Source: an uncultured Bacilli bacterium (GTDB lineage: Bacteria > Bacillota_I > Bacilli_A > RF39 > UBA660). Taken from it: DNA of 51,741 nucleotides. This document shows positions 10,514-50,453 of the stretch, one piece after another. The position numbers and the translations under genes are program-made. The notes below the pieces were generated by a model. It worked only from the letters and a program-made list of their open reading frames with translations, searched no databases and was not told where the DNA came from. Numbering within the stretch: the stretch's first letter is position 1; each line of letters begins with the position of its first letter. Location of the stretch: contig CAJFVY010000018.1 of NCBI GenBank assembly GCA_904420615.1, forward strand, positions 1 to 51,741, read 5' to 3'.

Positions 10514-10550
10514 AAAAAAACGTGTCCGCAAAGTTATATTATCGGACACG
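10514..10550 (-). terminator. Rho-independent terminator of dinJ-yafQ
   Basis: On the minus strand, CGTGTCCG-(14 nt)-CGGACACG forms an 8-bp GC-rich stem followed by T7. It lies about 55 nt after the yafQ stop. Confidence 0.7.
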
Positions 10551-10606
10551 AAGGCTAATTTAATATTATTTTTATTATATAAAATTATACAAAAAAAGAA
10601 GTGTTA

Positions 10607-10897
10607 TTATTTATTTAACACTTCACTATGACTACCAGTATTTACTAACAATAAAACTATTTCGTCTTCTAAGTATTTATATATAAGTATCCAGTCGGGT
10701 TCGATATGACAATCTCTACAATCTTTAAATTTTTTATCATTGTATAATTGATGATCTCTATATTTAGGATCTAATTGTTGTTTTCTTGAAAGCATATCTA
10801 CTACATTTAATAATTTGTCAATATTTTTGCCTTGTTTAGTTACTTTTTTTAATGATTTTTTAAATTCTTTTGAATATTTTATTTTATAATTAGTCAT
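10607..10897 (-). CDS. yafQ: Type II toxin, YafQ/RelE family mRNA interferase
   Basis: 96 aa. YSKEFKKSLKK...LDPKYRDHQL...CRDCHIEPDWILIYK...LVNTGSHSEV matches the YafQ pattern. Overlaps the antitoxin gene by 8 nt. Confidence 0.8.
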   Translation of the reverse strand: MTNYKIKYSKEFKKSLKKVTKQGKNIDKLLNVVDMLSRKQQLDPKYRDHQLYNDKKFKDCRDCHIEPDWILIYKYLEDEIVLLLVNTGSHSEVLNK

Positions 10898-26185: not shown

Positions 26186-27976
26186 CTAGAATCCTCCTCC
26201 ACTACCAAATGATTCTAATTCTTCTTTTGTTACAATAACATTTATACGCATTCTACGAGAGCCACAAACAAACAAAGCCTCTCCTTGAGAATATCGTTTA
26301 ATACTTTCTTTTTCATTATCATTTAAATCAATTAACAATGATAAATCTTCCACTGCTTGTTTTCTTAAACCCATTACCAAATAATAAGAGGAATTATCGA
26401 AAATAGCTTTACCTTGAGTAATTACATCTGGGCCTGAGAAATCACTAGGCTGTTGTGTAATAATAATGGTTCCAGTATTATATTTACGAGCACGTCTTTG
26501 TACTTGTGCTAAGAAGTCAGCTCCTTGTTGATTATTGCCACTAAGTAATACATGTGCTTCATCAACCATTAAAACAGTATTTACATCCACATCTAAACAT
26601 AATCCCCAAGCATATTTAAGTACATTAAAGAATAAAGCATTACGAATATTAGTATCTGAATTCATAAACTCTTTAATATTAAATACAATAAAATCACTTT
26701 GTGGTGCAATGGTTGTTTTACCATCAAAATAGAACTTTAATTCTCTTGTTAATGGTCTAATCTTAAGTTCCAAGCGTTGCATAATATCTTTTTCACGTGT
26801 TTGCTCCGTCATAGACATTAATCTTCCTTTTACTGTAGCATAAACATCTGTAAAAGTCGGATAGTCATTACTAGTAAACTTAGAAAAATCAGTATTAAAA
26901 TCAATACCAAAACGTTTATAAGTATCTTGTAATACTTCACTAAATAGTGTTAAAACATCTTCCTCAATAGATGGATCATAATACTTCATAAAGGCTCTTA
27001 ACGATTGAATCGTTCTAGTTAAAATAGTATAACCAAGCCCTTGTTTGATTTCTTCATCATCAGCATCAATTACAACTTCAAGTGGATTAATCATTCCGAA
27101 TTCTCCACCCTTACCAATATCGATAACATCTCCACCAAAAGAGCGTGTCATTTCCTCTAATTCATTTTCAGGGTCAATTGCCACAATTTGACAACCATTT
27201 CGAATATGACTTCTTAAAATTAGTTTAGCTGCAGTTGATTTACCACTTCCTGAAGTACCAAGAATAATCATATTAGCATTATTTCTATTATTTTCTTTAC
27301 GAATTTGATATAAAAATTGATTAAATAGAATAACTCCACCAGAAAAGTCTACCCCAAGTAAAACAGAAAGTCCTGGATCTTTAATACTATCAAAGATAAA
27401 AGGATACATAGCTGCAATAGTTGGAGATGGAATTGGAGTACCAACTCTTTGCTCAATATCTTGACTAGGAAAGATTGGTAAAATACTTTTTAGTACTTTT
27501 TCCTGCTCAAAACGTAATGAAACAGCCCTAAGTTCCATTGCATCTAAATAGTTTTTAACATTTACTTTTCTTAACTCTAAATCTTCTCTAGTATCTGCAG
27601 TTATCATAATATGCATTTGAAAGTCAAAAATCTTTGATTGACTACTAGCAAGCATAGATACAAAATACTCCAAACTTTCAGCATCTTGTCTAATACGTTC
27701 CTTTGCTGTTTGATCTTTCTCATCACGATATTTTTCTCTTAAATCAGCAACTTGTCTATTAATCATCTTAGACATAGATGAAAAAGGAACTGGAATATGC
27801 TTGATAACAATTTTAATACCACTATTAGAAGTTAGGGAAGCTAAATAACCTGGAGCAATATATCTAGGATAAGAGATCACTGTCAAAATAGTTGCATACT
27901 TATCACTAATAAAGAAATCACTGGCATTAAAGCTAAGTCCCTTAGGAGCTAATTGACTTTTTATACTAATACTCAT
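26186..27976 (-). CDS. virB4: VirB4-family ATPase, C-terminal (ATPase) part
   Basis: 596 aa. Walker A MIILGTSGSGKSTAAK, Walker B VLMVDEAHVLL, IIITQQPSDF motif. Its start overlaps the preceding stop as ATGA. Confidence 0.85.
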   Translation of the reverse strand: MSISIKSQLAPKGLSFNASDFFISDKYATILTVISYPRYIAPGYLASLTSNSGIKIVIKHIPVPFSSMSKMINRQVADLREKYRDEKDQTAKERIRQDAESLEYFVSMLASSQSKIFDFQMHIMITADTREDLELRKVNVKNYLDAMELRAVSLRFEQEKVLKSILPIFPSQDIEQRVGTPIPSPTIAAMYPFIFDSIKDPGLSVLLGVDFSGGVILFNQFLYQIRKENNRNNANMIILGTSGSGKSTAAKLILRSHIRNGCQIVAIDPENELEEMTRSFGGDVIDIGKGGEFGMINPLEVVIDADDEEIKQGLGYTILTRTIQSLRAFMKYYDPSIEEDVLTLFSEVLQDTYKRFGIDFNTDFSKFTSNDYPTFTDVYATVKGRLMSMTEQTREKDIMQRLELKIRPLTRELKFYFDGKTTIAPQSDFIVFNIKEFMNSDTNIRNALFFNVLKYAWGLCLDVDVNTVLMVDEAHVLLSGNNQQGADFLAQVQRRARKYNTGTIIITQQPSDFSGPDVITQGKAIFDNSSYYLVMGLRKQAVEDLSLLIDLNDNEKESIKRYSQGEALFVCGSRRMRINVIVTKEELESFGSGGGF

Positions 27977-28521
27977 GAAGGCATCACCGTCCCAAATTCT
28001 GTAGAAACTCCTCCATTCAAGAAGTTTTCTAATACAATTCTTAAATCATCATTGCTAACTTGTGAAGCATTTAAACCACAACCTGCCAAACCATTAATTA
28101 ATAGACGAATTCGTTTTTGTAATACATCCTCATTAGCATCCCTAAATAAAATGTAATATTCTGTATCAACAATATTATTACTCATAAAACTATTTCCTTT
28201 TTCAATATCTTGTAAAATAATTTTTCTAATAGCTGGTGATTGAGTATCATTATAAAGTAATTGTAATTGTGACATATAAACAGAAATATCAACTGGTCTA
28301 TCTGCTACAACCAACCAAAATTCAAAATCAATCATATTATAAAAGTTTTTTAAACTAATTAAAATATTATCTTGAGCTTGAGCATCAAGAATAAAAATAT
28401 TTCTAGGTGCGATTTTAACACCTGTGACTTTTTGTTTGTTGGAACAAATAATCATTCCATTACGAATACCTTCTACTGGTAACCAATCTTCTGTATATTG
28501 ACTACTTATTTTCTTGGCCAT
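27973..28521 (-). CDS. Separate ORF resembling the N-terminal domain of Gram-positive VirB4
   Basis: 182 aa. DWLPVEGIRNGMII...VTGVKIAPRNIFILD resembles the N-terminus of PrgJ/Orf16-type VirB4. The combined length of 182+596 aa matches single-chain homologues. Confidence 0.5.
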   Translation of the reverse strand: MAKKISSQYTEDWLPVEGIRNGMIICSNKQKVTGVKIAPRNIFILDAQAQDNILISLKNFYNMIDFEFWLVVADRPVDISVYMSQLQLLYNDTQSPAIRKIILQDIEKGNSFMSNNIVDTEYYILFRDANEDVLQKRIRLLINGLAGCGLNASQVSNDDLRIVLENFLNGGVSTEFGTVMPS

Positions 28522-30991: not shown

Positions 30992-32179
30992 TTATTGTAT
31001 TCCACATGTTGGGTTACTAATTCCCAAAAATACATTTAATATTAATTGTACTATAAGCGGTATTAAAAACAGTGCTATGGCTGCAATTAATCTAATAATA
31101 AATTTGGATTGAACACTTTGCATTAGTTTTTCATCAGATGACATAATAGCTTTAATAAAATCTATAGCACTTAATAGTATTACCGCAATTGGACCGAATA
31201 TTTTAATATAATTTAATATTCGTTGTAAGATCCAGCCAACTGATCCTTCTTCCATAACAAATAAATTCTCACAACCAATTTTTTGATTAAAGTCCATTGT
31301 TTCATCATAATGGCTAACTGGATCACTAGCAGCAACAGCAATATAATTATAAGGATACATAAGACCATCATTTCCTTGATAATAAACATAATATGGATCA
31401 TTACCTTTTTCATAAGGATTTGATATACAATACTTATAATCAGATATTACATCACTGCCATTTATCATTTGTTCATGATAAGTCAACCAACCACTATAAG
31501 CACAATTATCTCTTGGATCCAAATCTGAATATTTAAAATCATTTGTTTGCTCAGCCTTAACATGATATACAGTCAACAAATTAGTATATGAATATGCATT
31601 AGCATCAATATTTTTATTTGAAATAAAGATATTAAAATCTGAATTTTCTCTATAAATATCTGCAACATATACATACTGTGGACACTGAGAAAAATCATAA
31701 TTTTCAGTACTAGATACATATGATGGAAAAGTAACAGTTCTTGATATATATACTTTATTATCAATAGTAAGAGGTGAATCTACATTTTTAAAACCATCTT
31801 CTGTATTGAAATCATAATCATTAACATACACATTTGGATCTATTGAAAATGAAAAATTATAATTTTGATTCCAATTTTTTACTTCATACGTATCATTTTC
31901 ATCATTAAGTGAAGCACCAAAGAATTCGAATAAAGTTGCATCAATCTTAGTTAAAGTATCATTTTCTCTATCATCAGGTCCATAGAGATTAATAGAAAGT
32001 TTAGCACTGGTTACTCCCACATCATCACTAACCATTGGTTCAATTGGTAGTGGTGTCTTATAAGTATATGTATATTCACACGTATTTCTTAGAGTATCAG
32101 CCTCTACAAAATTGGGCATAACAAAGTAACAAAAAACAAAAATAAAGAAAAAAGATTTTATTAGTATTTTAGCGCGCAT
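30992..32179 (-). CDS. Secreted ~300-aa domain fused to a C-terminal VirB2-like membrane hairpin
   Basis: 395 aa. Signal peptide ...NFVEA/DT. The C-terminal ~70 aa is paralogous to ORF 32358-32678 (ID..KA..SSDEK....QSK.I.R.I.A.A.F). Confidence 0.6.
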   Translation of the reverse strand: MRAKILIKSFFFIFVFCYFVMPNFVEADTLRNTCEYTYTYKTPLPIEPMVSDDVGVTSAKLSINLYGPDDRENDTLTKIDATLFEFFGASLNDENDTYEVKNWNQNYNFSFSIDPNVYVNDYDFNTEDGFKNVDSPLTIDNKVYISRTVTFPSYVSSTENYDFSQCPQYVYVADIYRENSDFNIFISNKNIDANAYSYTNLLTVYHVKAEQTNDFKYSDLDPRDNCAYSGWLTYHEQMINGSDVISDYKYCISNPYEKGNDPYYVYYQGNDGLMYPYNYIAVAASDPVSHYDETMDFNQKIGCENLFVMEEGSVGWILQRILNYIKIFGPIAVILLSAIDFIKAIMSSDEKLMQSVQSKFIIRLIAAIALFLIPLIVQLILNVFLGISNPTCGIQ

Positions 32180-32357: not shown

Positions 32358-32678
32358 CTAATTTTTAATACTATCCCAACAAGTCCACCATGTTCCCATA
32401 TCACCAGCATTTTGATCTACTGTAACTTTTGAAATTGTATTAAATAGTAAATTCACAATAGTAACTACAAAGAAGATTGCAACAGCATAAATACAACGTT
32501 TAATTAGTTTACTTTGTGCTTCCTTAACTTGTTTTTCATCTGATGAAATAACAGCTTTACCTAAGTCAATGGTACCAAGTACAATCAAAATGATGGGAAT
32601 ACCAATTTGAATAATTGGAAATACTCCAAGTTTTATAATTCTAACAAGAAATCCTAATCCTCCGCAAGCATCTACCAT
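32358..32678 (-). CDS. VirB2/TrbC-like pilin-type small membrane protein
   Basis: 106 aa from the ATG at 32678, with AGGAG 8 nt upstream. Two TM helices are separated by the charged loop DLGKAVISSDEKQVKEAQSKLIKR. Confidence 0.5.
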   Translation of the reverse strand: MVDACGGLGFLVRIIKLGVFPIIQIGIPIILIVLGTIDLGKAVISSDEKQVKEAQSKLIKRCIYAVAIFFVVTIVNLLFNTISKVTVDQNAGDMGTWWTCWDSIKN

Positions 32679-32734
32679 ACATATCACTCCTCACTTAATA
32701 ACTTAATCATATAGTAATTTTTTATTTTTGTCAA

Positions 32735-33715
32735 TTAATTCCTTTTAAATAAACCAAATATTTTACCATCTGATTTATTATCTTTATTTTGGACTATTCC
32801 TAATTTACCAAGAAAAGTCGCTAAAGCTGGATTTTTAGCTCGATCATTTAATGGTGGAATACTATAAAATACTTTTGTTTTTCCTTCATATTCAAAATCC
32901 ATAATATCACTATTAGATAATAAACTCTTATTTAAAATAATCTTCTTACCTTTTAACTCTTCCAATACTCGTCTATTTCTTCTCATCATTTTATTTAATT
33001 TAATAATAGAAGGTTCAATTAGATAAAGAACATCGCCACAAACGCCTTCATTATTTGAATCATTTAAGTCGATCAAAATAATAGCTGCATCTTTATGCTT
33101 TACTACTTCAGTCATCAAGTCTTGATCATTCACTGACACCATATTTCTATCATTAAAATAAAGAAAATCATGGCGATTTACTTCAATAGCTGTAACGCTC
33201 ATCCCATAAGTCTGCTCTAACTCTTTCTTTAAAAGATAAATTAAAGTAGTACTTCCAGCATGATCTGTAATATTTTTAATACCAATGATTCTAGAACCTG
33301 CTACTACTTTGGCATTTATCGTAGTAGATAAATCATTTAATTGTTGAATATGAGCTACATCTTTATAAGTATTGGGATGCTCTAAGAAGTATTTTACGCC
33401 ATCAAGATTTGTTGTAAAGTTATAAATGCCCATAGAAATAATCTTGGACAAATAACTACTAGACGTTGAAATTTCATTATTAGGAAGTACCAAAATAATT
33501 TTATCAGCATCTAATCCCATTGATATTTTTTGTAAGTTAGTAATATCGTTATAATTTTCAATAGCTGTAATATCTAAAATCATTCTGGCATAAAAGAAAT
33601 TTTTAAACATGTCAACTAATTCATCAGCAGTATGAACTCCATCTACACTTTTAATAATGTCTATATCTAATTCGCTTAACATGGATTTTGCTTCATTAGC
33701 AACTATTACATTCAT
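32735..33715 (-). CDS. TadZ/CpaE-like protein: receiver-like N-domain plus ParA/MinD-like domain with degenerate P-loop
   Basis: 326 aa. The N-terminal ~120 aa is receiver-shaped (MNVIVANEA...DKIILVLP). The C-terminal part has IIGIKNITDHAGSTTLIYLL where MinD/ParA proteins carry G-K-G-G-x-G-K-T. Confidence 0.45.
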   Translation of the reverse strand: MNVIVANEAKSMLSELDIDIIKSVDGVHTADELVDMFKNFFYARMILDITAIENYNDITNLQKISMGLDADKIILVLPNNEISTSSSYLSKIISMGIYNFTTNLDGVKYFLEHPNTYKDVAHIQQLNDLSTTINAKVVAGSRIIGIKNITDHAGSTTLIYLLKKELEQTYGMSVTAIEVNRHDFLYFNDRNMVSVNDQDLMTEVVKHKDAAIILIDLNDSNNEGVCGDVLYLIEPSIIKLNKMMRRNRRVLEELKGKKIILNKSLLSNSDIMDFEYEGKTKVFYSIPPLNDRAKNPALATFLGKLGIVQNKDNKSDGKIFGLFKRN

Positions 33716-33735: not shown

Positions 33736-34197
33736 TTAGCGTTCATAAATTGTTGTGGTTTCACCTGATACTTGTAAATAATTACCTAATGGTAAAAACC
33801 TATTGAGAAATGGAATATTAATATTAACAAAGGTAACTACCTGATAATATGTGCCACGGTAATTACCACTATTCTTATTTCCGCTGACATTAATAGCATG
33901 AACACAGTATCCTGCAGTCCTATCACACGTATATTCACTAGGATCTAAGCCGTCAAAAACAGAAGTTTCATCAAAGTAATCAGCTGGTACATAGTAATTC
34001 ATTCTTTGTACATATGATGCTATTTGCGATTGAGCATTTGTTGTATATCCTTCTGATTGTTCAATAATATCAATAATCCCATTTTTAACCCGGAAAGCCC
34101 TCGTATAATTTACAGAATAAGCCAAATAACCATTAATCAACAATACAAATGCTAAAATTATTTGGAGTGCAAATGCTCCACCAACAGCTTCTCTCAT
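33736..34197 (-). CDS. TadE-like pseudopilin
   Basis: 153 aa. Short polar leader MREAVG followed by a hydrophobic helix GAFALQIILAFVLLINGYLAY. Follows the mini-pilin gene as tadE does in tad loci. Confidence 0.5.
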   Translation of the reverse strand: MREAVGGAFALQIILAFVLLINGYLAYSVNYTRAFRVKNGIIDIIEQSEGYTTNAQSQIASYVQRMNYYVPADYFDETSVFDGLDPSEYTCDRTAGYCVHAINVSGNKNSGNYRGTYYQVVTFVNINIPFLNRFLPLGNYLQVSGETTTIYER

Positions 34198-34286: not shown

Positions 34287-34439
34287 TTAACTTCTCTTTT
34301 CATTCGTTGTAGATTCAGTCCACTGATCAGTTACAGTATTCTGAATAGTTGGCCAAAAAGCCCAAAAAAATACTATAATTGCACCAATAATAATGATAGT
34401 AATAACTGTCATATTTAATTCTCCCGTTGCTTCTTTCAT
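34287..34439 (-). CDS. Flp-like mini-pilin (ORF below the track cut-off)
   Basis: My own translation of the minus strand gives MKEATGELNMTVITIIIIGAIIVFFWAFWPTIQNTVTDQWTESTTNEKRS (50 aa). It has a polar leader ending in Gly and a 20-aa hydrophobic helix. An alternative start at M10 has a GGGAG RBS. Confidence 0.55.
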   Translation of the reverse strand: MKEATGELNMTVITIIIIGAIIVFFWAFWPTIQNTVTDQWTESTTNEKRS

Positions 34440-34473
34440 TTAAAAATACACATCCTTTCCTATTATCAAATTT

Positions 34474-34502
34474 ATTATAACAAATATTTTATTTGTTGTA
34501 AC
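34474..34502 (-). promoter_or_regulatory. Possible internal promoter for the mini-pilin gene
   Basis: Minus strand reads GTTACA (34497-34502), a 17-nt spacer, then TGTTATAAT extended -10 (34474-34482), about 35 nt upstream of the ATG. The AT-rich context lowers specificity. Confidence 0.4.
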
Positions 34503-34522: not shown

Positions 34523-35302
34523 TCAACCCATCATATTAAACATTGACGACAAAATAACTACCATTGTTCCAAGACCTGTTACAACAAGCATAATCATTGT
34601 CTGTTGTTCCATATGATTTAATCTTTCTTTATATTTCGTTTCACGTGCTTTGTTTTGCAAATTCGAAACAGTTCTTGAAAACATCAATAATCGTTCTTGT
34701 TTTTTTTCTTGTTCTCCAATTCCTAGACGATATAAAAGACGCATCATTCGCATAGAGTCTCTAACTGGATATTCATTCGCAAATTCCATATAAGGATCAA
34801 TACTAGAGTCACCTGAATTAATTTTTTCTATCATTTCTCTTAAACCATGTTTAAATATTTCAGGTGCTGATTCCAAACTTTTACCAATTGCTACTGGTAC
34901 TGTATAATGTTGAATTAAAATCTCTAAGCTCTTTAAATAGTATGGCAACATCAAGTCAATTTCATGCAAGTGAGCCTTATAATACTTTTTTAATTGCGTA
35001 TAAGGAAGTTTAAAAACAAGAAAAGCTATTCCTATTGCTAATGCAACATTTAATAGACTAATAGAATCAAGAAAAATAAACAAAAAGATAAAGGCAACTA
35101 TTACTCCATATTGAATTCTTTTATCAAATAAAACATCTGGTTTTGCATCTTCTCCATATTTTGCTCTTACTAAAAAATCGTAATCATCTTCCCTCAAGAC
35201 ATTAAAATAATGTTTATTATCTTGAATAAATTTCTTACTATCAATCGTTTTATTATAAATTAATACAAACAAGATAATGACAGCAACGAATAACATTTCC
35301 AT
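34523..35302 (-). CDS. TadC-like T2SS-F family inner-membrane platform protein
   Basis: 259 aa. TM1, a TM pair, a cytoplasmic helical domain (AIGKSLESAPEIFKHGLREMIEKINSGDSSIDPYMEFANEY) and a C-terminal TM. This is the T2SSF layout. Confidence 0.6.
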   Translation of the reverse strand: MEMLFVAVIILFVLIYNKTIDSKKFIQDNKHYFNVLREDDYDFLVRAKYGEDAKPDVLFDKRIQYGVIVAFIFLFIFLDSISLLNVALAIGIAFLVFKLPYTQLKKYYKAHLHEIDLMLPYYLKSLEILIQHYTVPVAIGKSLESAPEIFKHGLREMIEKINSGDSSIDPYMEFANEYPVRDSMRMMRLLYRLGIGEQEKKQERLLMFSRTVSNLQNKARETKYKERLNHMEQQTMIMLVVTGLGTMVVILSSMFNMMG

Positions 35303-35304
35303 AA

Positions 35305-36198
35305 CTATTCAACCCCCACATTTTCATTATAGTATCTTTCACCTTTCATCAAGAAATAACTGTTAAAGATGATAATACCATGTAACATAACCTGAACATA
35401 TGTCTGCTCTATCATAGCTAAGTAATTTTCACTACCAAGCATATATTGTATTAACATAACAAGGGCAAATAGCATGACACCATATTGCAAGAATTTTTTA
35501 TGGAAATTAGCTCGATCAAGTCTATCACGATAAACACTTTCAACAAGGGTATCGATATCAAGTTGCATATTTTCAAGACTTTCTCCAGAATCTTTAGCAC
35601 CTTCTCTAGTGATTTGTAAGAATAATTGATGCATATTCTTGACTATGTAATATGGATATTTATTATTCATATACTCTATCGATTCGTCAATTGAACCATT
35701 TTCATACGAAAGTTCTATCATGTGTTCTACATCACTTTTCACAGGATCTTCTAAAATGCCTGAGTCTCTCACTCCTTCAAGAGATTTCACAAAGCTCTGA
35801 GTCGTTGTAAATTCCATAATAACATTACTTGTATAAACCTGAATTTGTTCAAAGATATATTCACTATATACTCTTTTACATCTTAAGAAAGCAAGATATG
35901 GAATAAGAGCAATAGCTAACGTGGCATAAATAATACTAACTATAATATTATAAAAATATATATATGTTACTACAGCTGCAAAGCCTCCTAACATTAATAC
36001 TTGAGTCAAATATTGTCTTGGCGTATATTCTTGTCCTAATTCTTTTGTTTTTTCTCTTACTACTTTAAAAGAATAAGGAGCAAAGCGATCATATAGAGCT
36101 TGAAATTGTGAGGTAAAGTATTTTGCTACATTCTGCCCTTTATAATTACGATACAATAAAACTAAGGCAGCAATAATAACTAATAAGAATAATACCAT
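35305..36198 (-). CDS. TadB-like T2SS-F family inner-membrane platform protein
   Basis: 297 aa with the same layout as the next gene (KSLEGVRDSGILEDPVKSDVEHMIELSYENGSIDESIEYM). Lies directly after the ATPase. Confidence 0.6.
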   Translation of the reverse strand: MVLFLLVIIAALVLLYRNYKGQNVAKYFTSQFQALYDRFAPYSFKVVREKTKELGQEYTPRQYLTQVLMLGGFAAVVTYIYFYNIIVSIIYATLAIALIPYLAFLRCKRVYSEYIFEQIQVYTSNVIMEFTTTQSFVKSLEGVRDSGILEDPVKSDVEHMIELSYENGSIDESIEYMNNKYPYYIVKNMHQLFLQITREGAKDSGESLENMQLDIDTLVESVYRDRLDRANFHKKFLQYGVMLFALVMLIQYMLGSENYLAMIEQTYVQVMLHGIIIFNSYFLMKGERYYNENVGVE

Positions 36199-36213: not shown

Positions 36214-37464
36214 CTATTGATCAAAATTAATTCTTGGTAATGATTCTTGTGTATTTAATGAAGTTGTAGCAGTAAAATTTGGAGTAATAATCTCATTATT
36301 ATCTGGTACTTCTACATTAGTAGACAAGGAAGGAGCTTCTTGAGTATCCATACTTTTATTCATTACTTCTTCTACTTCATTACTTAAATTATTCATGGAA
36401 TCCCCAGTCGTAAATAACTGATCAATATGTATATTCTGATTTTCTAGATATTCTCTTAAGTGATCACTTGGCATATTTTGTACAGGAGCCTTACCAAAGG
36501 TCTTTTGATAAAGTAGATGTGTTTGTGGTTTATTATCATCATCTACATAAAATTCCACAACTTCATCAACTTCACGATGAAATTTTCCATACTCTTTACT
36601 ATAATAAGCTTTAATGTGAACTCCTAATTGAATATAACGATAAATAGTATTTAAAAATTGGTCTACATCAATATCAGACTCTAACAATGAATAAAGACGA
36701 TATGGTATAGAACTAGCTTTATCAGCATGAATAGTTGATAAAATATTGTGTCCTGATGAAATAGAGTTACGAACGGCCGTTACTGCTTCAGCACTACGAA
36801 CTTCTGATAGTAAAATCCATTTAGGATTCTGTCGCATACAGGCTACTAGAATTTCTGAATAACTAGCAATATTATTCGTTTTCATAGCTACAATGTCTCG
36901 ATGGGGAAAGATTTTATCTAAGTGTAATTCTAGTGTATCTTCGATGGTAATAATCTTTTCATTTTCTTTCGTATGACTAGCTAAGTATTTAACAAATTCT
37001 GTTTTACCAGAACCAGTTTCTCCACTAACCATTATATTACAATGCCCTTCAACACATTTTATAAGGATATCGTGAATATTGGCTGTGAAGTAATCCTCTG
37101 CTAATAATTTTTCTTTACTAAGTCTTATTTTAGCAGGCGTTTTACGAATAACAACAGCAATTCCATTTGTTGCAATTGATTCATGCAAGAAGTTAAGACG
37201 TAATTCTGTACTTTCAGCATCCAAAAATGGTTTGGCCATATTAAAAGTTGTTCCCATAACATTAGAACATTGAAAGGCTAATTTATCTACAAAAGCATCA
37301 TTTAGCCCTTCAATTTCTATTCGCTTCGAACCATAGGTTAATGATCTAATCCATATTTGTCCATGGTTACAATAGGAAATATCAGTAATATCATCATCAT
37401 CAATTAGTGGTTGAAATAAACCAAAGTCAATCTTATCAAAAATAGCATCATTCATTCTAACCAC
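36214..37464 (-). CDS. tadA: CpaF/TadA (VirB11-superfamily) secretion ATPase
   Basis: 416 aa. Walker A SGETGSGKTEF, Asp box IITIEDTLEL, Walker B WILLSEVR, His box GHNILSTIHA. Confidence 0.8.
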   Translation of the reverse strand: MVRMNDAIFDKIDFGLFQPLIDDDDITDISYCNHGQIWIRSLTYGSKRIEIEGLNDAFVDKLAFQCSNVMGTTFNMAKPFLDAESTELRLNFLHESIATNGIAVVIRKTPAKIRLSKEKLLAEDYFTANIHDILIKCVEGHCNIMVSGETGSGKTEFVKYLASHTKENEKIITIEDTLELHLDKIFPHRDIVAMKTNNIASYSEILVACMRQNPKWILLSEVRSAEAVTAVRNSISSGHNILSTIHADKASSIPYRLYSLLESDIDVDQFLNTIYRYIQLGVHIKAYYSKEYGKFHREVDEVVEFYVDDDNKPQTHLLYQKTFGKAPVQNMPSDHLREYLENQNIHIDQLFTTGDSMNNLSNEVEEVMNKSMDTQEAPSLSTNVEVPDNNEIITPNFTATTSLNTQESLPRINFDQ

Positions 37465-37482: not shown

Positions 37483-38307
37483 TTATTGTTGTTGTGTTGC
37501 TGCTAATTCCTGATCTGTCATAGCAGTAACATTATTAATAAAGTTACGTAAATCTTCACTAGATACTTTAACATCCCCTGGATCTTCTTCTAGACTCTCA
37601 GCTGTTGGTACTGGAATAATTTCAGAATCATAGGCTCTTAAGTAACTAGCTTTTCTAAGTAACAAGTGATATTCTTCTGGAACAGCAAAGATAATTTGAG
37701 CAGGTGTTCCTTTTTCATCAAGATTAGCAAATACGTTATTACCATTAGAATCAAAAACTGCTAAAACTTTTACGTTTTCTAGTAATTTACCAATCATAAT
37801 TCTATCTTCTGTAACATTACCATTTGCATCTGTTGGATTCGTAATTTTTAAATATATATCTATATAATTACCTGGATAGATAGAGTTACTATAAGAAGTT
37901 GTCATATTAACAGCCAAATTATATAATACATAACCTTTTGGATAATTATAAATAATTGCAGCTGGTAATTGATCACGAGTTACTACACTCCGTGAATAGA
38001 ATAAACTTCCTTCCGGAATGACGCTATCTCCTGCAGAATACATATCTATAACATCTTCTGCATTTCGATATACATCACCAGCTAACATAGCCGGTGGTAC
38101 TTCCATAGTACCAACCATATCTTCTGTTATTTGTGTACTTGGATTAATCGTAACTAAAGCATATGGTACACTAATTGGATTTACTGCTTGGTTTACTCGC
38201 ATATTATAACCTACATAAAGAACTATAATAGCTAGAATAACGCCAACTACAGTAACTGTATTTTTGTTAGTAAAAAACTTTTTTATACCAATTACTAAAT
38301 TATTCAT
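37483..38307 (-). CDS. CpaB/RcpC-like pilus assembly protein (SAF plus beta-clip)
   Basis: 274 aa. N-terminal TM, an SAF-like segment (INPSTQITEDMVGTMEVP...IPEGSLF), then GNYIDIYLK...LENVKVLAV...AQIIFAVPEEYHLLLRKA. Confidence 0.55.
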   Translation of the reverse strand: MNNLVIGIKKFFTNKNTVTVVGVILAIIVLYVGYNMRVNQAVNPISVPYALVTINPSTQITEDMVGTMEVPPAMLAGDVYRNAEDVIDMYSAGDSVIPEGSLFYSRSVVTRDQLPAAIIYNYPKGYVLYNLAVNMTTSYSNSIYPGNYIDIYLKITNPTDANGNVTEDRIMIGKLLENVKVLAVFDSNGNNVFANLDEKGTPAQIIFAVPEEYHLLLRKASYLRAYDSEIIPVPTAESLEEDPGDVKVSSEDLRNFINNVTAMTDQELAATQQQ

Positions 38308-38328: not shown

Positions 38329-38790
38329 TTAACCATCAACTTCACTATAATCAAGTTCCCCACGTCTTGTCATGTCTGTAATAAATTCATTGGTCTTATA
38401 AGTACTTTCTAATATAGCATCAATTTGATTACTAATACCTAATGTTTCGCTATTAAAAGTTGCAGAAGTTGAAGAATCAACTTTAATACTTACTTTAGGT
38501 GGTGTTTCATTAATATCATAAAATTTTATACTATAGCTTCGATTATTAGCAACGTTTTGAGCAAAACGACGTATAAAGCTTTCGGCAAACATTTCTTTAT
38601 CAATACGAAGATTACCATAGAGACGGTAATAACCAATATCTACCGCATCGGTCATAGCCGCCTCTGTAGTCTCTCTTAACAAATAATAATCAAGTTCATT
38701 ACCTGTTTGATAATTTTGAACAATATTTACTACACCGAAGGTAAAAAGCGCTAAGATAATAATTCCAATGATCATCATACCTCTACTCAT
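38329..38790 (-). CDS. Pseudopilin-like protein (TadF/TadG-like position)
   Basis: 153 aa. Short leader MSRG followed by a hydrophobic helix MMIIGIIILALFTFGVVNIV. No further motif. Confidence 0.35.
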   Translation of the reverse strand: MSRGMMIIGIIILALFTFGVVNIVQNYQTGNELDYYLLRETTEAAMTDAVDIGYYRLYGNLRIDKEMFAESFIRRFAQNVANNRSYSIKFYDINETPPKVSIKVDSSTSATFNSETLGISNQIDAILESTYKTNEFITDMTRRGELDYSEVDG

Positions 38791-38792
38791 TT

Positions 38793-41657
38793 TTACTCTC
38801 CTCCTCTTCTACTAGCACTCTCGCTTTGATAAGTATCGTAACAAAGTTGGCTATCTTGATAAATTGCAGTATCACACTGAGTAGCACTAGATTGATTATT
38901 ACATCCGATTAATCCACGTTTTACCAAGAAGTCTGTTCCATATCTTTCTGACATTTCATCAATAAATGAACTCTTATATACTGAAATACCAGGTGTTTTA
39001 TTAATTCCAGCTGAAGATTGTGATTTATCATCAGTTGGATTTAAATAACTTCCTTGTTCTGAATTATAATTTCGAATAGCATTAATAGTAGTTGGAGTTA
39101 AAGTAAATTCATAATCTAGATATTTTTCTTCATTTGCTTCATCATATATACTATTACCAGCTTTTTGAATATTTTCTCGTAATGCTACTGGTTGTACTAA
39201 ATAATCTTGATTAGACAAGTTAGTAGCACCACAACTCCAGTTAAAGTATGGATCTCTAGTACTTGATCCTTCTTCTGATGCAGGGAATAAATTAGTTAAC
39301 GAAATAGATCTAAAGCCATAAGCATCTGTAATATCCCATTCACAATCTTCCTCATCTGGATCACATTCATAATCACACTCTTCAACAGAAGGATCACATA
39401 TAGGATTATCATTATCGCAAATTTCAACTTTAGGATCACATTCTACCTTATCATCATCATCTGGTAAAGCCAAAGCATAGAAACATGTTAGTGGAATATT
39501 CCAGTTATAGTAACCAAAGTTTTCAATATTAACATGAATATTTTGATTTTCATTTACTTCTTGGTTAATAATAGACATTTCTTCACTCGTTAAACCATAA
39601 TTTTCTTTACTATGATCATAATATCTCTTCCATCTATACCAGTTAACATTGATTGGCGTAGAATCCATTCTAGTACAGAATTTACGACCAAGTTCTGTAT
39701 AAATGCTAGTATCTTCAGGTTCTTTATCTGTTATGATATGAGTTTTATTATTTAAATAATGTTTAGGGAAAGTTAATACATCACGATAAGTATATGGCGG
39801 ATATTCTTCCTCATAACAAATACCGTTTGTATCAATAACAATATCATCTCCTACAACATCAGTTCCACCTTTATTTTGTGTAGCATCATATATTACTTCA
39901 TAATCTTCATCACTTTCAATTGGATTATCAACAGTAATGTCAAAAGATGCAGTTCCTTCTGTTTGATTATTACTACATAATGATGCGGCTGCATCACACT
40001 TAGCTGCTACATTTTGTGTTTCTTGTTGTTGAGATTGTGATATCAAATTAGCTGCTTCTTGAGTTGGTACAGAATTCGCTGGACATTGTCCAATCAACTG
40101 ACATGAATCAGTACAATTGGCATCTACACCGTTTCTTGTTGTTTGCATTAAGAAACCATTTTGTTCACGATAAGCAAAAGTAGCACTACTACTAGCTAAA
40201 TTAGCATAACCAAGCCAAAGTTTAATTGTCTCAGCAGTTTGTTCTACACTATTTAAATACCATGGAGCTACTGAAATATAATTTTGTCCTCTATTGGCAT
40301 TCCAATATGTACGTCCTTGACTATCCTTTGCATATGAACCAAAATAAGATAAACCATTATCAGCAATCATTTGACTATATCTTTGATATAACTCTCTTGC
40401 TAGTGTCATCAAATCTTCTCCATCACGATAACGGACACCATACTCACTAAGCCATAAGTTTCTATTTTCACTTTCTGTATCAGAAGCATCTACTTTTCTA
40501 ATCGTATTTAAATCATCATTACTATTTTTAGTTTGATAAGTTAAAATAGTAGCATTATTACTATTAATAGATAATTCATCAGTTTCTTCATTCTCATATA
40601 CTTTAGTATAACATTTATTAATACATGCTTGCGTATATTCGCCGCCATCACATTCAGTAATACAATTATCAAAATCATCATCTGGTCCACCATTATGATA
40701 ATTGGTTCCTGTTTTTGTTGTACATTGTGGTACTAAAGTACATACTTCTGGAGGTGAAGGAATGTTTCCAGTATATTTACCAGAACAATCCATTGTTGTT
40801 CTAATTTCAGCTACATATTCAAAACACATTCCAATTTGAGTCTCTACTGGAGGATCCCAAATCACTTCTACTGTTTCAACACACTCTACTTCACAATCAT
40901 TAATGCCGTCATTCGTAACATCTATACTACTAGTTCCTGTATGATAATATTTTCTAGTACTATCACGTTCCGAAAAAGTATCACATTGAGCGCCAGTCAA
41001 ATCAGGATTTGTTGGATCAGATATTTCCTTGGCATCTGTTGGTATTACTACAGGATCACTTACATTTGATAAATTATGAAGATTAACTGCAGTCTCAATA
41101 TACTGATTAATTCTATCTATACTAAATGCATCTAATCTAGCTTGTGTCACTTGTTCTTCAAAACAAATAGATACTGCCGCTGCCATATTAGCATCATTTT
41201 GATAAGTATTACGATAATTTATGCAGGATTGAGAGTTGTAATAAGGATTAGAAACCAAACTTTCTACTGCAAAGCGATATGTCTTTGTACATGCTGTATC
41301 ACCAACATATGTCAAAATCAATTCGTTAGTGGTTGATACCATATCATTTGGATTTAAATTAATAATTAAATTACCATTTGATACACTAATAGAACTTTGA
41401 GCTATTCCATTTAAAGTAACTGTATAATCAGCTGCATTAAATTGATCACTATCATATTGAGAATTAATTGTAACTGTTGATCCTTCAACATTAATTGTAT
41501 TAGGCAATATTTCTATTTCACGGCATTGTTTTAATCCTTCTTCATTATCCTCACCAGATACAGACACCGTAGCAGTAACAAGAATAAAACCTACTAACAA
41601 AAACATAAGTGTAGATATTAGCCATGCTCCCTTTTTATGCTTCTTGATTATTGTCAT
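38793..41657 (-). CDS. Large N-terminally anchored, Cys-rich extracellular protein
   Basis: 954 aa with a TM after KKHKKG. Many Cys throughout. Contains the acidic Cys cluster ECDPKVEICDNDNPICDPSVEECDYECDPDEEDCEW. Confidence 0.6.
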   Translation of the reverse strand: MTIIKKHKKGAWLISTLMFLLVGFILVTATVSVSGEDNEEGLKQCREIEILPNTINVEGSTVTINSQYDSDQFNAADYTVTLNGIAQSSISVSNGNLIINLNPNDMVSTTNELILTYVGDTACTKTYRFAVESLVSNPYYNSQSCINYRNTYQNDANMAAAVSICFEEQVTQARLDAFSIDRINQYIETAVNLHNLSNVSDPVVIPTDAKEISDPTNPDLTGAQCDTFSERDSTRKYYHTGTSSIDVTNDGINDCEVECVETVEVIWDPPVETQIGMCFEYVAEIRTTMDCSGKYTGNIPSPPEVCTLVPQCTTKTGTNYHNGGPDDDFDNCITECDGGEYTQACINKCYTKVYENEETDELSINSNNATILTYQTKNSNDDLNTIRKVDASDTESENRNLWLSEYGVRYRDGEDLMTLARELYQRYSQMIADNGLSYFGSYAKDSQGRTYWNANRGQNYISVAPWYLNSVEQTAETIKLWLGYANLASSSATFAYREQNGFLMQTTRNGVDANCTDSCQLIGQCPANSVPTQEAANLISQSQQQETQNVAAKCDAAASLCSNNQTEGTASFDITVDNPIESDEDYEVIYDATQNKGGTDVVGDDIVIDTNGICYEEEYPPYTYRDVLTFPKHYLNNKTHIITDKEPEDTSIYTELGRKFCTRMDSTPINVNWYRWKRYYDHSKENYGLTSEEMSIINQEVNENQNIHVNIENFGYYNWNIPLTCFYALALPDDDDKVECDPKVEICDNDNPICDPSVEECDYECDPDEEDCEWDITDAYGFRSISLTNLFPASEEGSSTRDPYFNWSCGATNLSNQDYLVQPVALRENIQKAGNSIYDEANEEKYLDYEFTLTPTTINAIRNYNSEQGSYLNPTDDKSQSSAGINKTPGISVYKSSFIDEMSERYGTDFLVKRGLIGCNNQSSATQCDTAIYQDSQLCYDTYQSESASRRGGE

Positions 41658-42423
41658 TTGTTACACCTTCTTCCATTCTTTCTCTTATCGGTTCATAATT
41701 ATCATTTGTCTTAACATCAACTAATGTTTGTCTTTCTCCATCTCGTAATTTTCTAGCATCTACTCTAAAGGAATAACTACTTCCTGATCCATAGAATCTT
41801 GTACATGTATATAGAGTTAATAATAAATCATCTTTTGTAACATCAACATCCATATCATACATACTTTCTTCTTTTGACTTTTTTATATATTCTTCTAATT
41901 CCTCATCTGTAAATGTATCATAGAAAGAAGCACTTTGATCATCTTCTAGTAAAGCAACAGCATATATCCTATAAAGTGCAGTTTCACCAGTAACATCAGT
42001 AAACTCAATATACTGATTTTCATTTGTAAATTCAGGATAGATAAAAGCCATCAATTGTTCAAAACGAGTCATACTATCATCATCGATAATTGGATTTCGT
42101 GAAACATTACGAATATTATGCGAAATATAACTTGGATGATTACTGTTTTCATCAGGGAAAGCATTTGTCCAAGCAAATTGATATTCCATATTAGTAACAT
42201 CCTGAGCTGTAGTCCCCTGAATTAGTGCCATGTCAATATTGGTTCCTTCCACTCTTATCCAACCAACAACTTCGTCTCCATATTGTTTTGCCTGTTCTAT
42301 TTTGTCTTTTTCATCCATAATTTTAAAATCACTGGTTCGAACACTTAAAAGCCACCACAGCACTAATGTTATGGCAACTATTGCAATAATTAATCCAATA
42401 ATTAATAAACTTCGTTTTCTCAT
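41635..42423 (-). CDS. srtB: Class B sortase-like transpeptidase
   Basis: 262 aa with an N-terminal TM. VVGWIRVEGTNIDMALIQG, a His region SYISHNIR, the active-site motif LLLTLYTCT and a downstream Arg (SFRVDARK). It is collinear with S. aureus SrtB as I recall that sequence. Confidence 0.7.
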   Translation of the reverse strand: MRKRSLLIIGLIIAIVAITLVLWWLLSVRTSDFKIMDEKDKIEQAKQYGDEVVGWIRVEGTNIDMALIQGTTAQDVTNMEYQFAWTNAFPDENSNHPSYISHNIRNVSRNPIIDDDSMTRFEQLMAFIYPEFTNENQYIEFTDVTGETALYRIYAVALLEDDQSASFYDTFTDEELEEYIKKSKEESMYDMDVDVTKDDLLLTLYTCTRFYGSGSSYSFRVDARKLRDGERQTLVDVKTNDNYEPIRERMEEGVTNDNNQEA

Positions 42424-48796: not shown

Positions 48797-49753
48797 TTAT
48801 TTAGTTAATGCCTCAATTAATTCTGCTTTCTTCATTGCTGAATAACCTTTAATTCCTGCTTCCTTAGCTTTAGCTTTTAAATCTGCTAAGGTTAAATCTG
48901 CTAGTGAATCATCTTCCTTTTTTTCTTCAACTTCTTTTCTTTCTTCTTTTTTTACTTCAGTTTCTTTTTTATCTTCTTTAGATTGTTTCTTTTCTTTTAC
49001 ATCTTTTGTTTCTTCTTTTTCTTTCTTAGATGATTTTCCTTTTTCATCTTCACTTACATAGTCAATTACTTCATTACCATTTACACTAGCAATTGCATTT
49101 GTTAAAGCTCCAAGTAATAATTTTACAGAACGTACTGCATCGTCATTACCAGGTATTACATAATCAACCATATCAGGGTCACAATTAGTATCAATTACCC
49201 CAAATACTGGAATTCCTAAAATCTTAGCTTCATGAATTGCATTTTCTTCTTTCTTAGAATCTACAATTACGATAGCATTTGGTAATTTTTTCATTTCTCT
49301 AATACCACGTAAATTCTTATTTAATTTATCATATTCTTTACGTAGTTTAATTACTTCTTTCTTAGGAAGAACATCAAAAGTTCCATCGCTTTCCATTTTT
49401 TCAATTTCTTCCATTCTCTTAATACGAGAGCGAATTGTCTTGAAGTTAGTTAAAGTTCCACCTAACCATCTTTCATTTACAAAGTACATATTAGTTCTAG
49501 TAGCGCATTCTTCAGCTGCTTCTTGAGCTTGTTTCTTAGTACCTACAAATAAAACGCTACCTCCTGCTTCAACTATTTGTTTCATGGCATCATATGCCTT
49601 TTCAAGACATTCTACTGTCTTCTTTAAATCGATGATATAAATATCATCACGAGTTGTGTAAATATATGGTTTCATTTTAGGATTCCATCTTCTTTTTTGA
49701 TGACCAAAATGAACTCCTGCTTCTAATAAATTATTCATTGATACTACTGTCAT
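48797..49753 (-). CDS. rpsB: 30S ribosomal protein S2 with ~85-aa C-terminal extension
   Basis: [19 protein letters not shown] and the rest of the S2 core run to about residue 230. Then comes a KE-rich linker and a terminal [32 protein letters not shown]. Confidence 0.9.
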
Positions 49754-49841: not shown

Positions 49842-50453
49842 TTATTTTTCTAATGCAGCAATAATATCTGCTTTCTTTAATCCTGTTGTAGCAATTCCTT
49901 TACTTTTAGCTACTTCTTTTAATTGTGCTACTGTCATTTTACTATAATCTGTAGTAGCTTTTACTTCTTCCTTTTTTTCTTCTTTTTTAGTTTCTTTCTT
50001 TGATTCTTCTTTTGTTTCTTTTTCTACTTCTTTCTTAGCACTGTTCTTAGTAATAACTACCTCATCTTTTACTTCTGTTCTCTTAACTTCTTTACTACTT
50101 GTTAGTGCTTCTTTTGCTTTCTTAACTAATTCCTTAAAGCTAGCTTCATCATGAATAGCAATTTCGCTTAACATCTTTCTGTTGATATCTATACCAGCTT
50201 TATGAAGTCCTGACATAAATTTAGAATAACTAATGTCTTCCATACGACAAGCGGCATTAATTCTAGTAATCCATAATTTTCTAAATTCACGTTTCTTTTG
50301 CTTTCTATCTCTAAATGCATATTGTCCAGAATGCATTAATTGTTCTTTTGCACTCTTATATAGACGATGTTTACTACCAAAATATCCTTTGGCTTGTTTT
50401 AATACTTTTTTATGACGAGCTTTTGTTGTTGCTCCATTTTTTACTCTTGCCAT
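49842..50453 (-). CDS. rplT: 50S ribosomal protein L20 with ~85-aa C-terminal extension
   Basis: [26 protein letters not shown] and the L20 core run to about residue 118. Then comes a KE-rich linker and a terminal [31 protein letters not shown]. Confidence 0.9.

Follow-up and report, generated by a model that had tools for sequence, protein, structure and literature searches.

A conserved 50-codon gene as candidate major subunit of a very divergent Tad-like filament in uncultured gut Bacilli

What does a 50-codon open reading frame (ORF), lying in an apparent gap between the genes of a Tad-like cluster, contribute to the cell that carries it? The ORF is found on the minus strand at 34287-34439 of the 51,741-nucleotide stretch of DNA analysed here (the window), which is contig CAJFVY010000018.1, positions 1 to 51,741 of the forward strand, of assembly GCA_904420615.1 from an uncultured Bacilli bacterium (RF39; UBA660). 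A preliminary description of this DNA had proposed a pilin-like peptide that shares its leader with the next gene. Judged by its conservation in related loci, the ORF is a real, strongly conserved gene, and from its sequence and setting we propose that its product is probably a structural subunit, and most likely the major one, of a filament assembled by the neighbouring, very divergent Tad-like module.

The ORF runs from an ATG to a TAA and its product, MKEATGELNMTVITIIIIGAIIVFFWAFWPTIQNTVTDQWTESTTNEKRS, is 50 amino acids long; position and peptide are as first described. It begins 83 nucleotides past the stop codon of a gene for a 259-amino acid protein (34523-35302) and ends 89 nucleotides ahead of a gene for a 153-amino acid protein (33736-34197), whose N-terminus is MREAVGGAFALQIILAFVLL (MREAVG). 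A Shine-Dalgarno sequence, GGAAAGGA, is located at 34453-34460 on the minus strand, 13 nucleotides ahead of the ATG. Further upstream, at 34474-34502 on the same strand, is the sigma-70-type promoter that had been pointed out previously: a GTTACA −35 element, a 17-nucleotide spacer and the extended −10 element TGtTATAAT, with 10 of 12 matches in addition to the TG. The product consists of three parts, all encoded on the minus strand. Codons 1-6 (34422-34439) specify MKEATG, the shared ‘leader’ motif. Codons 7-29, ELNMTVITIIIIGAIIVFFWAFW (34353-34421), comprise the conserved Glu7, Leu8, Asn9 and Thr11 followed by a single hydrophobic helix, with one transmembrane helix of approximately 22 residues predicted at about residues 8-29 (8-26 by hydropathy). 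Codons 30-50 (34290-34352) encode a variable polar tail that is probably extracytoplasmic. A short polar N-terminus, a hydrophobic helix and a variable tail make up a pilin-like layout, and on this point too the preliminary description is borne out.

We followed the gene through the homologous locus of 20 other species of the same genus, in which the neighbouring 259-amino acid protein is 70-78% identical. The small ORF is found in all 20, starting at the same codon with ATG in 16 and GTG in four. In the codon alignment of these species the non-synonymous substitution rate (dN) over codons 2-10 is 0 at a synonymous rate (dS) of 0.94, giving a dN/dS of 0; the ratio is 0.125 over codons 11-29, 0.65 over the tail and 0.14 in the adjoining 259-amino acid gene. 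With dN at 0 while dS reaches 0.94, the first six codons appear to be translated and are under very strong constraint. The promoter is kept as [AG]GTTACA-N17-TGnTATAAT, 37-44 nucleotides ahead of the start codon, in 20 of 20 same-genus loci. A genome from another family (G037, 99% complete) has an intact cluster whose two genes start with MKEASGELNMTV and MREALG, and in this second family the frame, start position, Shine-Dalgarno sequence and promoter are preserved as well, the counterpart promoter being TTGATT-17-TATACT. In the 20 species GAAAGGAG stands 9-12 nucleotides ahead of the start, and it is maintained before the start in all 21 loci. Conservation of the frame and of the M[KR]EA[TV]G leader in homologous loci, which the preliminary description had singled out as a check, is thus observed together with an excess of synonymous change.

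The gene is a member of a large family. A word-indexed search returned 128 clusters, all termed ‘hypothetical’ and none with Pfam domains, and a profile search of 1.84 billion representatives of 50% identity clusters returned 930 clusters at E ≤ 1e-3, of which 443 also pass E ≤ 1e-10. Among the best 150 of the 930 matches, protein lengths range from 43 to 142 amino acids and almost all are aligned from residue 1. The N-terminal 15 residues are near-identical in 245 members, with M1, K2, A4, E7, L8 and T11 invariant, G6 and N9 present in 243 each and E3 in 228; the helix often ends in W-P. The tail is devoid of cysteines in the window species and its genus and has 2-6 of them in most relatives. 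The cysteine count is even (0, 2, 4 or 6) in 235 of the 245, which argues for disulfides and hence for a tail located outside the cell. A second subfamily starts with MKEA[AS]GEANLTV. When 400 genomes of the class were sampled, the gene turned up in 44 of the 51 genomes that belong to the window's family and in one of three from a single other family; the remaining families yielded only four marginal matches (E 6e-4 to 8e-4), each within a longer ORF, and approximately nine genomes contained two tandem copies. At least 517 loci were confirmed in GTDB species genomes. They belong to metagenome-assembled genomes of uncultured Bacilli from human, chicken, rabbit, ruminant and mouse gut, labelled Candidatus Onthousia, Scybalousia, Faecenecus, ‘Tenericutes’ or ‘Mollicutes’; the names RFN20 and CAG-826 have been associated in papers with these genera. 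A tblastn search with the small ORF against 72,556 plasmids gave no match, and the family therefore does not look plasmid-borne. At present it is completely unannotated. As this putatively central structural gene is either called ‘hypothetical’ or missed, the family would merit its own model in annotation pipelines.

The beginning of the small protein recurs in its neighbour. Both starts are as quoted previously, and the pattern that covers them, M-[KR]-[ED]-A-x-G, occurs in the whole 1.07-Mb genome at only two of 13,383 candidate starts (start codons followed by 40 or more codons), these two being the adjacent pair. The 153-amino acid gene (minus strand) starts with MR[DE]A[IVFL]G in 21 of 21 loci and, given this common N-terminal motif, is a candidate for a minor or priming subunit. 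The corresponding block of other genera consists of one or two small genes and, behind them, one or two genes of 140-170 amino acids, so that up to four consecutive genes share the motif (for example MKEATG, MKEATG, MREAIG, MREVTG), with the consensus M-[KR]-[ED]-[ASGV]-x-[GSN]. On the face of its sequences, such a row is arranged as a major pilin and its minor pilins would be. AlphaFold2 predicts for the 153-amino acid protein a 45-residue N-terminal helix and a four-stranded sheet (predicted local distance difference test score, pLDDT, 72), a topology that in the model is lollipop-like. The protein has no match in Pfam or NCBIfam, and no relation of its family to the DUF5411 protein of the cluster was detected with hhalign.

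The surrounding genes, all on the minus strand, make up the Tad-like module. The 259-amino acid polytopic membrane protein occupies the TadC position and a 297-amino acid one (35305-36198) the TadB position; the two are paralogous (hhalign E = 6.6e-6). The 297-amino acid protein matches, by BLASTP at E = 4e-13, a Priestia koreensis plasmid protein that PGAP names ‘type II secretion system F family’, and the 259-amino acid protein matches, by tblastn, the plasmid gene adjoining a ‘T2SS F family’ gene. The plasmid protein itself scores 24.2 bits on PF00482, for which the cut-off is 25.2, and the plasmid module is syntenic (DUF5411-SAF-ParA-like-CpaF-F-F). In a PF00482 search at E ≤ 10 neither window protein was matched and the genome yielded only its ordinary PilC; the profile of the 259-amino acid family matched nothing among PDB sequences. 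The link of the two membrane proteins to the platform family (T2SS-F/TadB-TadC) would thus be a transitive one. The earlier labels ‘tadC-like’ and ‘tadE-like’ are putative ones drawn from context and transitive homology, and in Pfam, NCBIfam and PDB fold searches they found no counterpart. Upstream of the membrane proteins is a secretion ATPase of the FlaI/CpaF/TadA type (36214-37464; PF00437 at 4.4e-28). Among PDB entries this ATPase is matched best by FlaI, archaeal GspE and CpaF, in alignments that start in the N-terminal domain and cover residues 5-304. It is preceded by a CpaB/RcpC-like protein (37483-38307; PF16976 at 9.1e-7, TIGR03177 at 1.2e-9) and a DUF5411 protein (38329-38790; PF17424 at 2.9e-50), a marker of such modules that is also found in the plasmid and Anaerorhabdus-type modules discussed below. 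Downstream of the 153-amino acid gene, a 326-amino acid protein (32735-33715) without a Pfam or NCBIfam match holds the TadZ/CpaE position, as indicated by synteny in G037, in G030 and in other genera. A system of CpaF, PilC/GspF and DUF5411 was reported in Clostridia in 2022, with no pilin identified (PMC9523054).

Other features of this region deserve mention. G030 carries a reduced module (L023, C19:1-6713) with CpaB-like, two platform-like and TadZ-like genes, without ATPase or small ORF, which may be a decaying locus. A 954-amino acid protein of the window (38793-41657) contains 33 cysteines and has a prepilin-like start, MTIIKKHKKG followed by a hydrophobic stretch; its G037 counterpart starts with MVKKLKKGRLNMKQ, an echo of the G-x-LNM of the small ORF that may be coincidence. 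A sortase-B-like gene (41635-42423) is also located in the cluster (PF04203 at 2e-6; TIGR03064 at 51.6 bits, the cut-off being 153.75), and no obvious substrate with a C-terminal sorting signal is present among its neighbours.

How might these components work together? The invariant N-terminal helix, the fast-evolving tail, the dedicated promoter, the tandem duplication, the shared start and the position after ATPase and platforms are most likely the signature of a major subunit. We envisage that the strong promoter within the operon allows the subunit to exceed the assembly proteins in number. Each subunit would be inserted in the membrane by its single helix (residues 8-29), its MKEATGE end pointing into the cytoplasm and its variable tail to the exterior. 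Extracting the subunits and packing their invariant helices as the core of a fibre would then fall to the FlaI/CpaF-like ATPase and the two platform-like proteins, with the 153-amino acid protein, which has the same start, acting as a minor or priming subunit. The resulting filament may serve the adjoining Gram-positive type IV secretion system (T4SS) as a contact or adhesion device.

Several findings weigh against this proposal. None of 33 family members matches Flp_Fap (PF04964) at E ≤ 1, nor does the window protein match it, and no significant match to TadE, T2SSF or NCBIfam pilin models was obtained. Foldseek searches of the PDB at E ≤ 0.001 returned neither a relative for the AlphaFold2 model of the 153-amino acid protein nor a fold match for that of the 259-amino acid protein (pLDDT 82). 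A cut after Gly6 would put the invariant Glu7 at +1 and the invariant Thr11 at +5, leaving no Glu at +5. No prepilin peptidase is encoded in the cluster in any lineage, and none in the window. Moreover, neither G037 (searched by profile and by protein) nor two genomes of the same family have an A24 peptidase; this is a single lineage, and if pilins must be processed, an intact cluster without such a peptidase is hard to reconcile with a pilin. Finally, a protein made of one helix and a variable tail might just as well stay anchored in the membrane as a component that does not polymerise.

What else, then, could the ORF be? Short ORFs are common and this one falls below the usual length thresholds, so that a chance frame in an intergenic spacer, or a spacer holding a regulatory RNA, has to be considered. 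The possibility is practically negligible: a chance ORF is refuted by synonymous changes that leave the amino acids intact (dN/dS 0-0.13 over codons 2-29), and the preserved start codon and Shine-Dalgarno sequence and the 930 related protein clusters at E ≤ 1e-3, 443 of them at E ≤ 1e-10, tell the same story, while no Rfam family overlaps the region. More serious is the notion of a small bitopic component of the Tad-like module or of the T4SS that does not polymerise, namely an assembly or gating factor, or an anchor displaying a short variable peptide. One transmembrane helix with an invariant membrane-proximal sequence would suit such a component, as would the missing Glu5, the lack of a match to any pilin family and the G037 lineage without any A24 peptidase. 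A near-consensus promoter within the operon and tandem duplication are better suited to an exposed subunit present in high copy, and the hypervariable, disulfide-bearing tail and the motif common to the mid-size lollipop-like proteins also fit a subunit better. We therefore regard a bitopic component as rather improbable.

A conserved N-terminus joined to a hypervariable C-terminus with an even number of cysteines is also what one would expect of a precursor of a small exported, often cysteine-rich peptide (a bacteriocin, signal or effector), with the N-terminus as an export signal that the adjacent machine would read and that is removed on export. In this genome and genus, however, the tail has about 20 residues and no cysteine; by sequence reading, neither an AxA signal-peptidase site behind the helix nor a double-glycine leader is present; the cluster holds no maturation protease, ABC exporter or immunity gene; and an ordinary signal peptide has a shorter and much less conserved hydrophobic segment. 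An exported peptide is accordingly very unlikely, and a structural subunit of a filament remains our favoured explanation.

Is the leader of this candidate subunit removed? We consider cleavage after Gly6 and a retained N-terminus about equally likely on present sequences. In the former case the first six residues would be cut off by the sole PilD-type A24 peptidase, encoded in an ordinary type IV pilus operon elsewhere in the genome; in the latter, Lys2, Glu3 and Glu7 would perform the charge-pairing usually provided by the free amino end and Glu5. MKEATG, a short charged leader ending in Gly, fits the format of a class III signal, and Gly6 is present in 243 of 245 members. The genome encodes a single A24 peptidase, its only PF01478 match, a 260-amino acid bifunctional-looking PilD with CxxC, beside PilC on contig C23. 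An A24 peptidase is found in 119 of 120 genomes of the window's family; because nearly all of them have one, including those that lack the ORF, co-occurrence of the two within the family is uninformative. For Pseudomonas PilD, Gly at −1 is the one residue known to be critical, and Glu at +1 therefore need not block cleavage. On the other side, K2 and A4 are invariant and E3 almost so, more constraint than is usual in a leader that is thrown away, E7 just behind the putative cut is invariant too, and Gly6 is replaced by Ser or Asn in several of the mid-size paralogues. The missing peptidase of the cluster and of the G037 lineage points in the same direction. The five pilins of the same genome with KG/FTL[IV]EL are already canonical PilD substrates. 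We know of no characterised pilin with a mature Thr at +5 and Glu at +1. Other types of processing were considered and rejected: a sortase cut at ‘EATG’ is at odds with the C-terminal location of sorting signals and with the V, I or L at position 5 of the paralogues, a Sec signal peptide with the absence of an AxA site, and a double-glycine leader is not present.

The gene cluster continues downstream of the pilin-like genes into a complete Gram-positive T4SS, comprising VirB2-like hairpins, TrbL/VirB6, a split VirB4, an M23 hydrolase and VirD4. The flanks of the whole block are housekeeping genes, with a P-type ATPase and spoVA on one side and typA, tsf and rpsB on the other, and neither relaxase nor integrase is encoded in the window. 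G037 shows synteny over the complete arrangement, again between housekeeping flanks. VirB4 is divided into an ORF of 182 amino acids (27973-28521) and an ATPase ORF of 595/596 amino acids (26186-27976), and likewise in G037 (L022:13721-14269, L121:267-2054); as the split recurs in a different family, it represents a preserved gene organisation rather than a frameshift. Two proteins are VirB2-like candidates: a 109-amino acid two-helix hairpin protein (32358-32687) with a weak match to the Mycoplasma ‘MMCAP2_0566 family conjugal transfer protein’, and a 395-amino acid protein (30992-32179) whose C-terminus repeats this hairpin. The small ORF was itself considered as a VirB2/TrbC pilin, a two-helix hairpin after a long signal peptide, and rejected, since it has a single transmembrane helix and the hairpins are separate genes. 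Elsewhere in the window, ribosomal proteins S2 (318 amino acids, 48797-49753) and L20 (203 amino acids, 49842-50453) have C-terminal extensions ending in a Rho_N/SAP-like module (PF07498, PF02037). Reviews hold that monoderm T4SSs have no pilins, Patescibacteria excepted (PMC4027160, PMC12857230).

What are the implications of such a subunit? The machine occurs in most genomes of a widespread lineage of uncultured gut Bacilli. If the small proteins form fibres, this would represent a new signal or assembly variant and a pilus for monoderm T4SSs, which textbooks deny them. To our knowledge, all characterised type IV filament subunits are prepilins trimmed by an A24 aspartic peptidase, with Glu5 as the hallmark of assembly. 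On paper the small-ORF family breaks both rules, and at least one lineage carries it without an A24 peptidase. We put forward, as a tentative and somewhat doubtful extension, that MKEATG stays uncleaved and that these are leaderless, peptidase-independent filament subunits, in which Lys2, Glu3 and Glu7 replace the pairing of amine and Glu5, forming a contact pilus for a monoderm T4SS. If the leaderless reading is true, they would be the first peptidase-independent class of pilins.

How does the small protein compare with known systems? The Flp/Fap pilins, such as Flp1 of Aggregatibacter and PilA of Caulobacter (PF04964), are similarly tiny (approximately 45-90 amino acids), consist essentially of one helix with a conserved N-terminus and a variable tail, and occur in tandem copies. 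Their genes are also found beside a TadA/CpaF ATPase, two platform paralogues, CpaB/RcpC and motif-sharing TadE-like proteins, the TadB/C and TadE identities being indirect in our case. In contrast, the MKEATG-type leader has six residues and not 13-26, the locus contains no tadV/cpaA peptidase, the TadB/C-like proteins are not seen by PF00482, and the module is fused to a Gram-positive T4SS. The canonical Flp motif G/xxxxEY is absent when the cut is placed after Gly6, as had been remarked previously: in G6-E-L-N-M-T-V, Thr is at +5 and Val at +6, and no xxxxE[YF] follows the Gly. Counted from Glu3, xxxxE-L is present, which is a resemblance and not an Flp match. The product is no canonical Flp; judging by its layout and neighbours, it would functionally resemble the Tad Flp pilins while failing the sequence-defined Flp_Fap test and the classical class III test.

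The preliminary description had also called for an alignment with archaeal-type pilins, and here, other than with Flp/Fap, a weak signal was obtained. The window protein has only sub-threshold matches in Pfam and NCBIfam (DUF3262, Brr6-like and Pilin_N). Pilin_N (PF07790) is matched by 12 of the 33 members, with a best E of 0.0087, and the window protein scores 14.8 bits against a gathering score of 25.2. It is the only pilin model that recurs among the members, and no other family is comparable. Likeness to archaeal type IV pilins extends to the ATPase, whose best solved relatives are FlaI and archaeal GspE. In Haloferax, an identical hydrophobic N-domain is common to several pilins of one organism. 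The archaeal pilins differ in that −2 is Lys or Arg and +1 is small, where the protein studied here has Thr and Glu, and all the PF07790 matches lie below the gathering score.

A closer yardstick is provided by the genome itself, which keeps an ordinary type IV pilus/competence set on contigs C12, C34, C73 and C23, with five pilins bearing KG/FTL[IV]ELL, a PilC with two T2SSF domains, and PilD. These type IVa/Com pilins (MKKNKG/FTLIELL) likewise have a leader of 5-7 residues ending in Gly and then a hydrophobic helix. They differ in their Phe at +1, Glu at +5 and variable basic leaders; in the MKEATG set positions −5 to −3 are K-E-A, +1 is Glu and +5 is Thr, and its proteins are a third to a quarter as long. 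As regards the T4SS, the thin pilus of R64 and the pilus of PAPI-1 are type IV filaments whose genes accompany VirB4/VirD4-type transfer genes, and they are believed to establish or stabilise contact between cells (PMC12857230). Those are type IVb pili of diderms on mobile elements, whereas the system described here is Tad-like, coupled to a monoderm T4SS and chromosomally fixed between housekeeping genes.

Related modules of the CpaF/VirB11 type exist on Gram-positive plasmids, and the ATPase also has matches on Bacillus anthracis plasmids. In a Paraclostridium bifermentans plasmid (NZ_CP079739.1; L118:10268-10411, 10528-10671), two tandem, near-identical hydrophobic genes of 47 amino acids, MLDQNTDRASWGMLALVLAGISALLV, each preceded by a near-identical segment of about 70 nucleotides, come after CpaF/VirB11, two platform-like genes and a 120-amino acid gene of a conjugative-type module. 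Like our locus, they belong to a module that has DUF5411 or DUF4320, an ATPase and a pair of platform-like genes; they differ in having no MKE start, and are uncharacterised. No small pilin-like gene is visible in the Priestia koreensis plasmid module.

A further relative is found in Anaerorhabdus-type Erysipelotrichaceae. Here a 49-amino acid gene, MKEILQEYGGFILSIVLIAALIA (MKEILQEYGGF), its start fixed by a Shine-Dalgarno sequence (L119:2821-2970, L120:2814-2963), is followed by DUF5411, CpaB, ATPase, two platform-like and DUF4320-like genes and a gene for an 855-amino acid surface protein, with no adjoining T4SS. Its product aligns gaplessly from residue 1 with the small-ORF family (hhalign E = 7e-5, probability 63%). 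The two are alike in the MKE start and Glu7; the Anaerorhabdus-type protein differs in Q6, E7-Y8 and GG/F, and is equally uncharacterised. Its residues 7 and 8 form an Flp-like E-Y, and nothing but M-K stands in front of the xxxxEY. In this register Glu7 would be the counterpart of the pilin Glu5, with almost no leader, which counts against cleavage. For the filament reading as such, this related protein is a point in favour. When it was used to look for variants bearing a canonical Flp leader, only 13 clusters were retrieved, all MKEILQEYGGF, and the link to Flp therefore remains a resemblance. As the related module is present in the cultured Anaerorhabdus furcosa, it offers a route to experiments.

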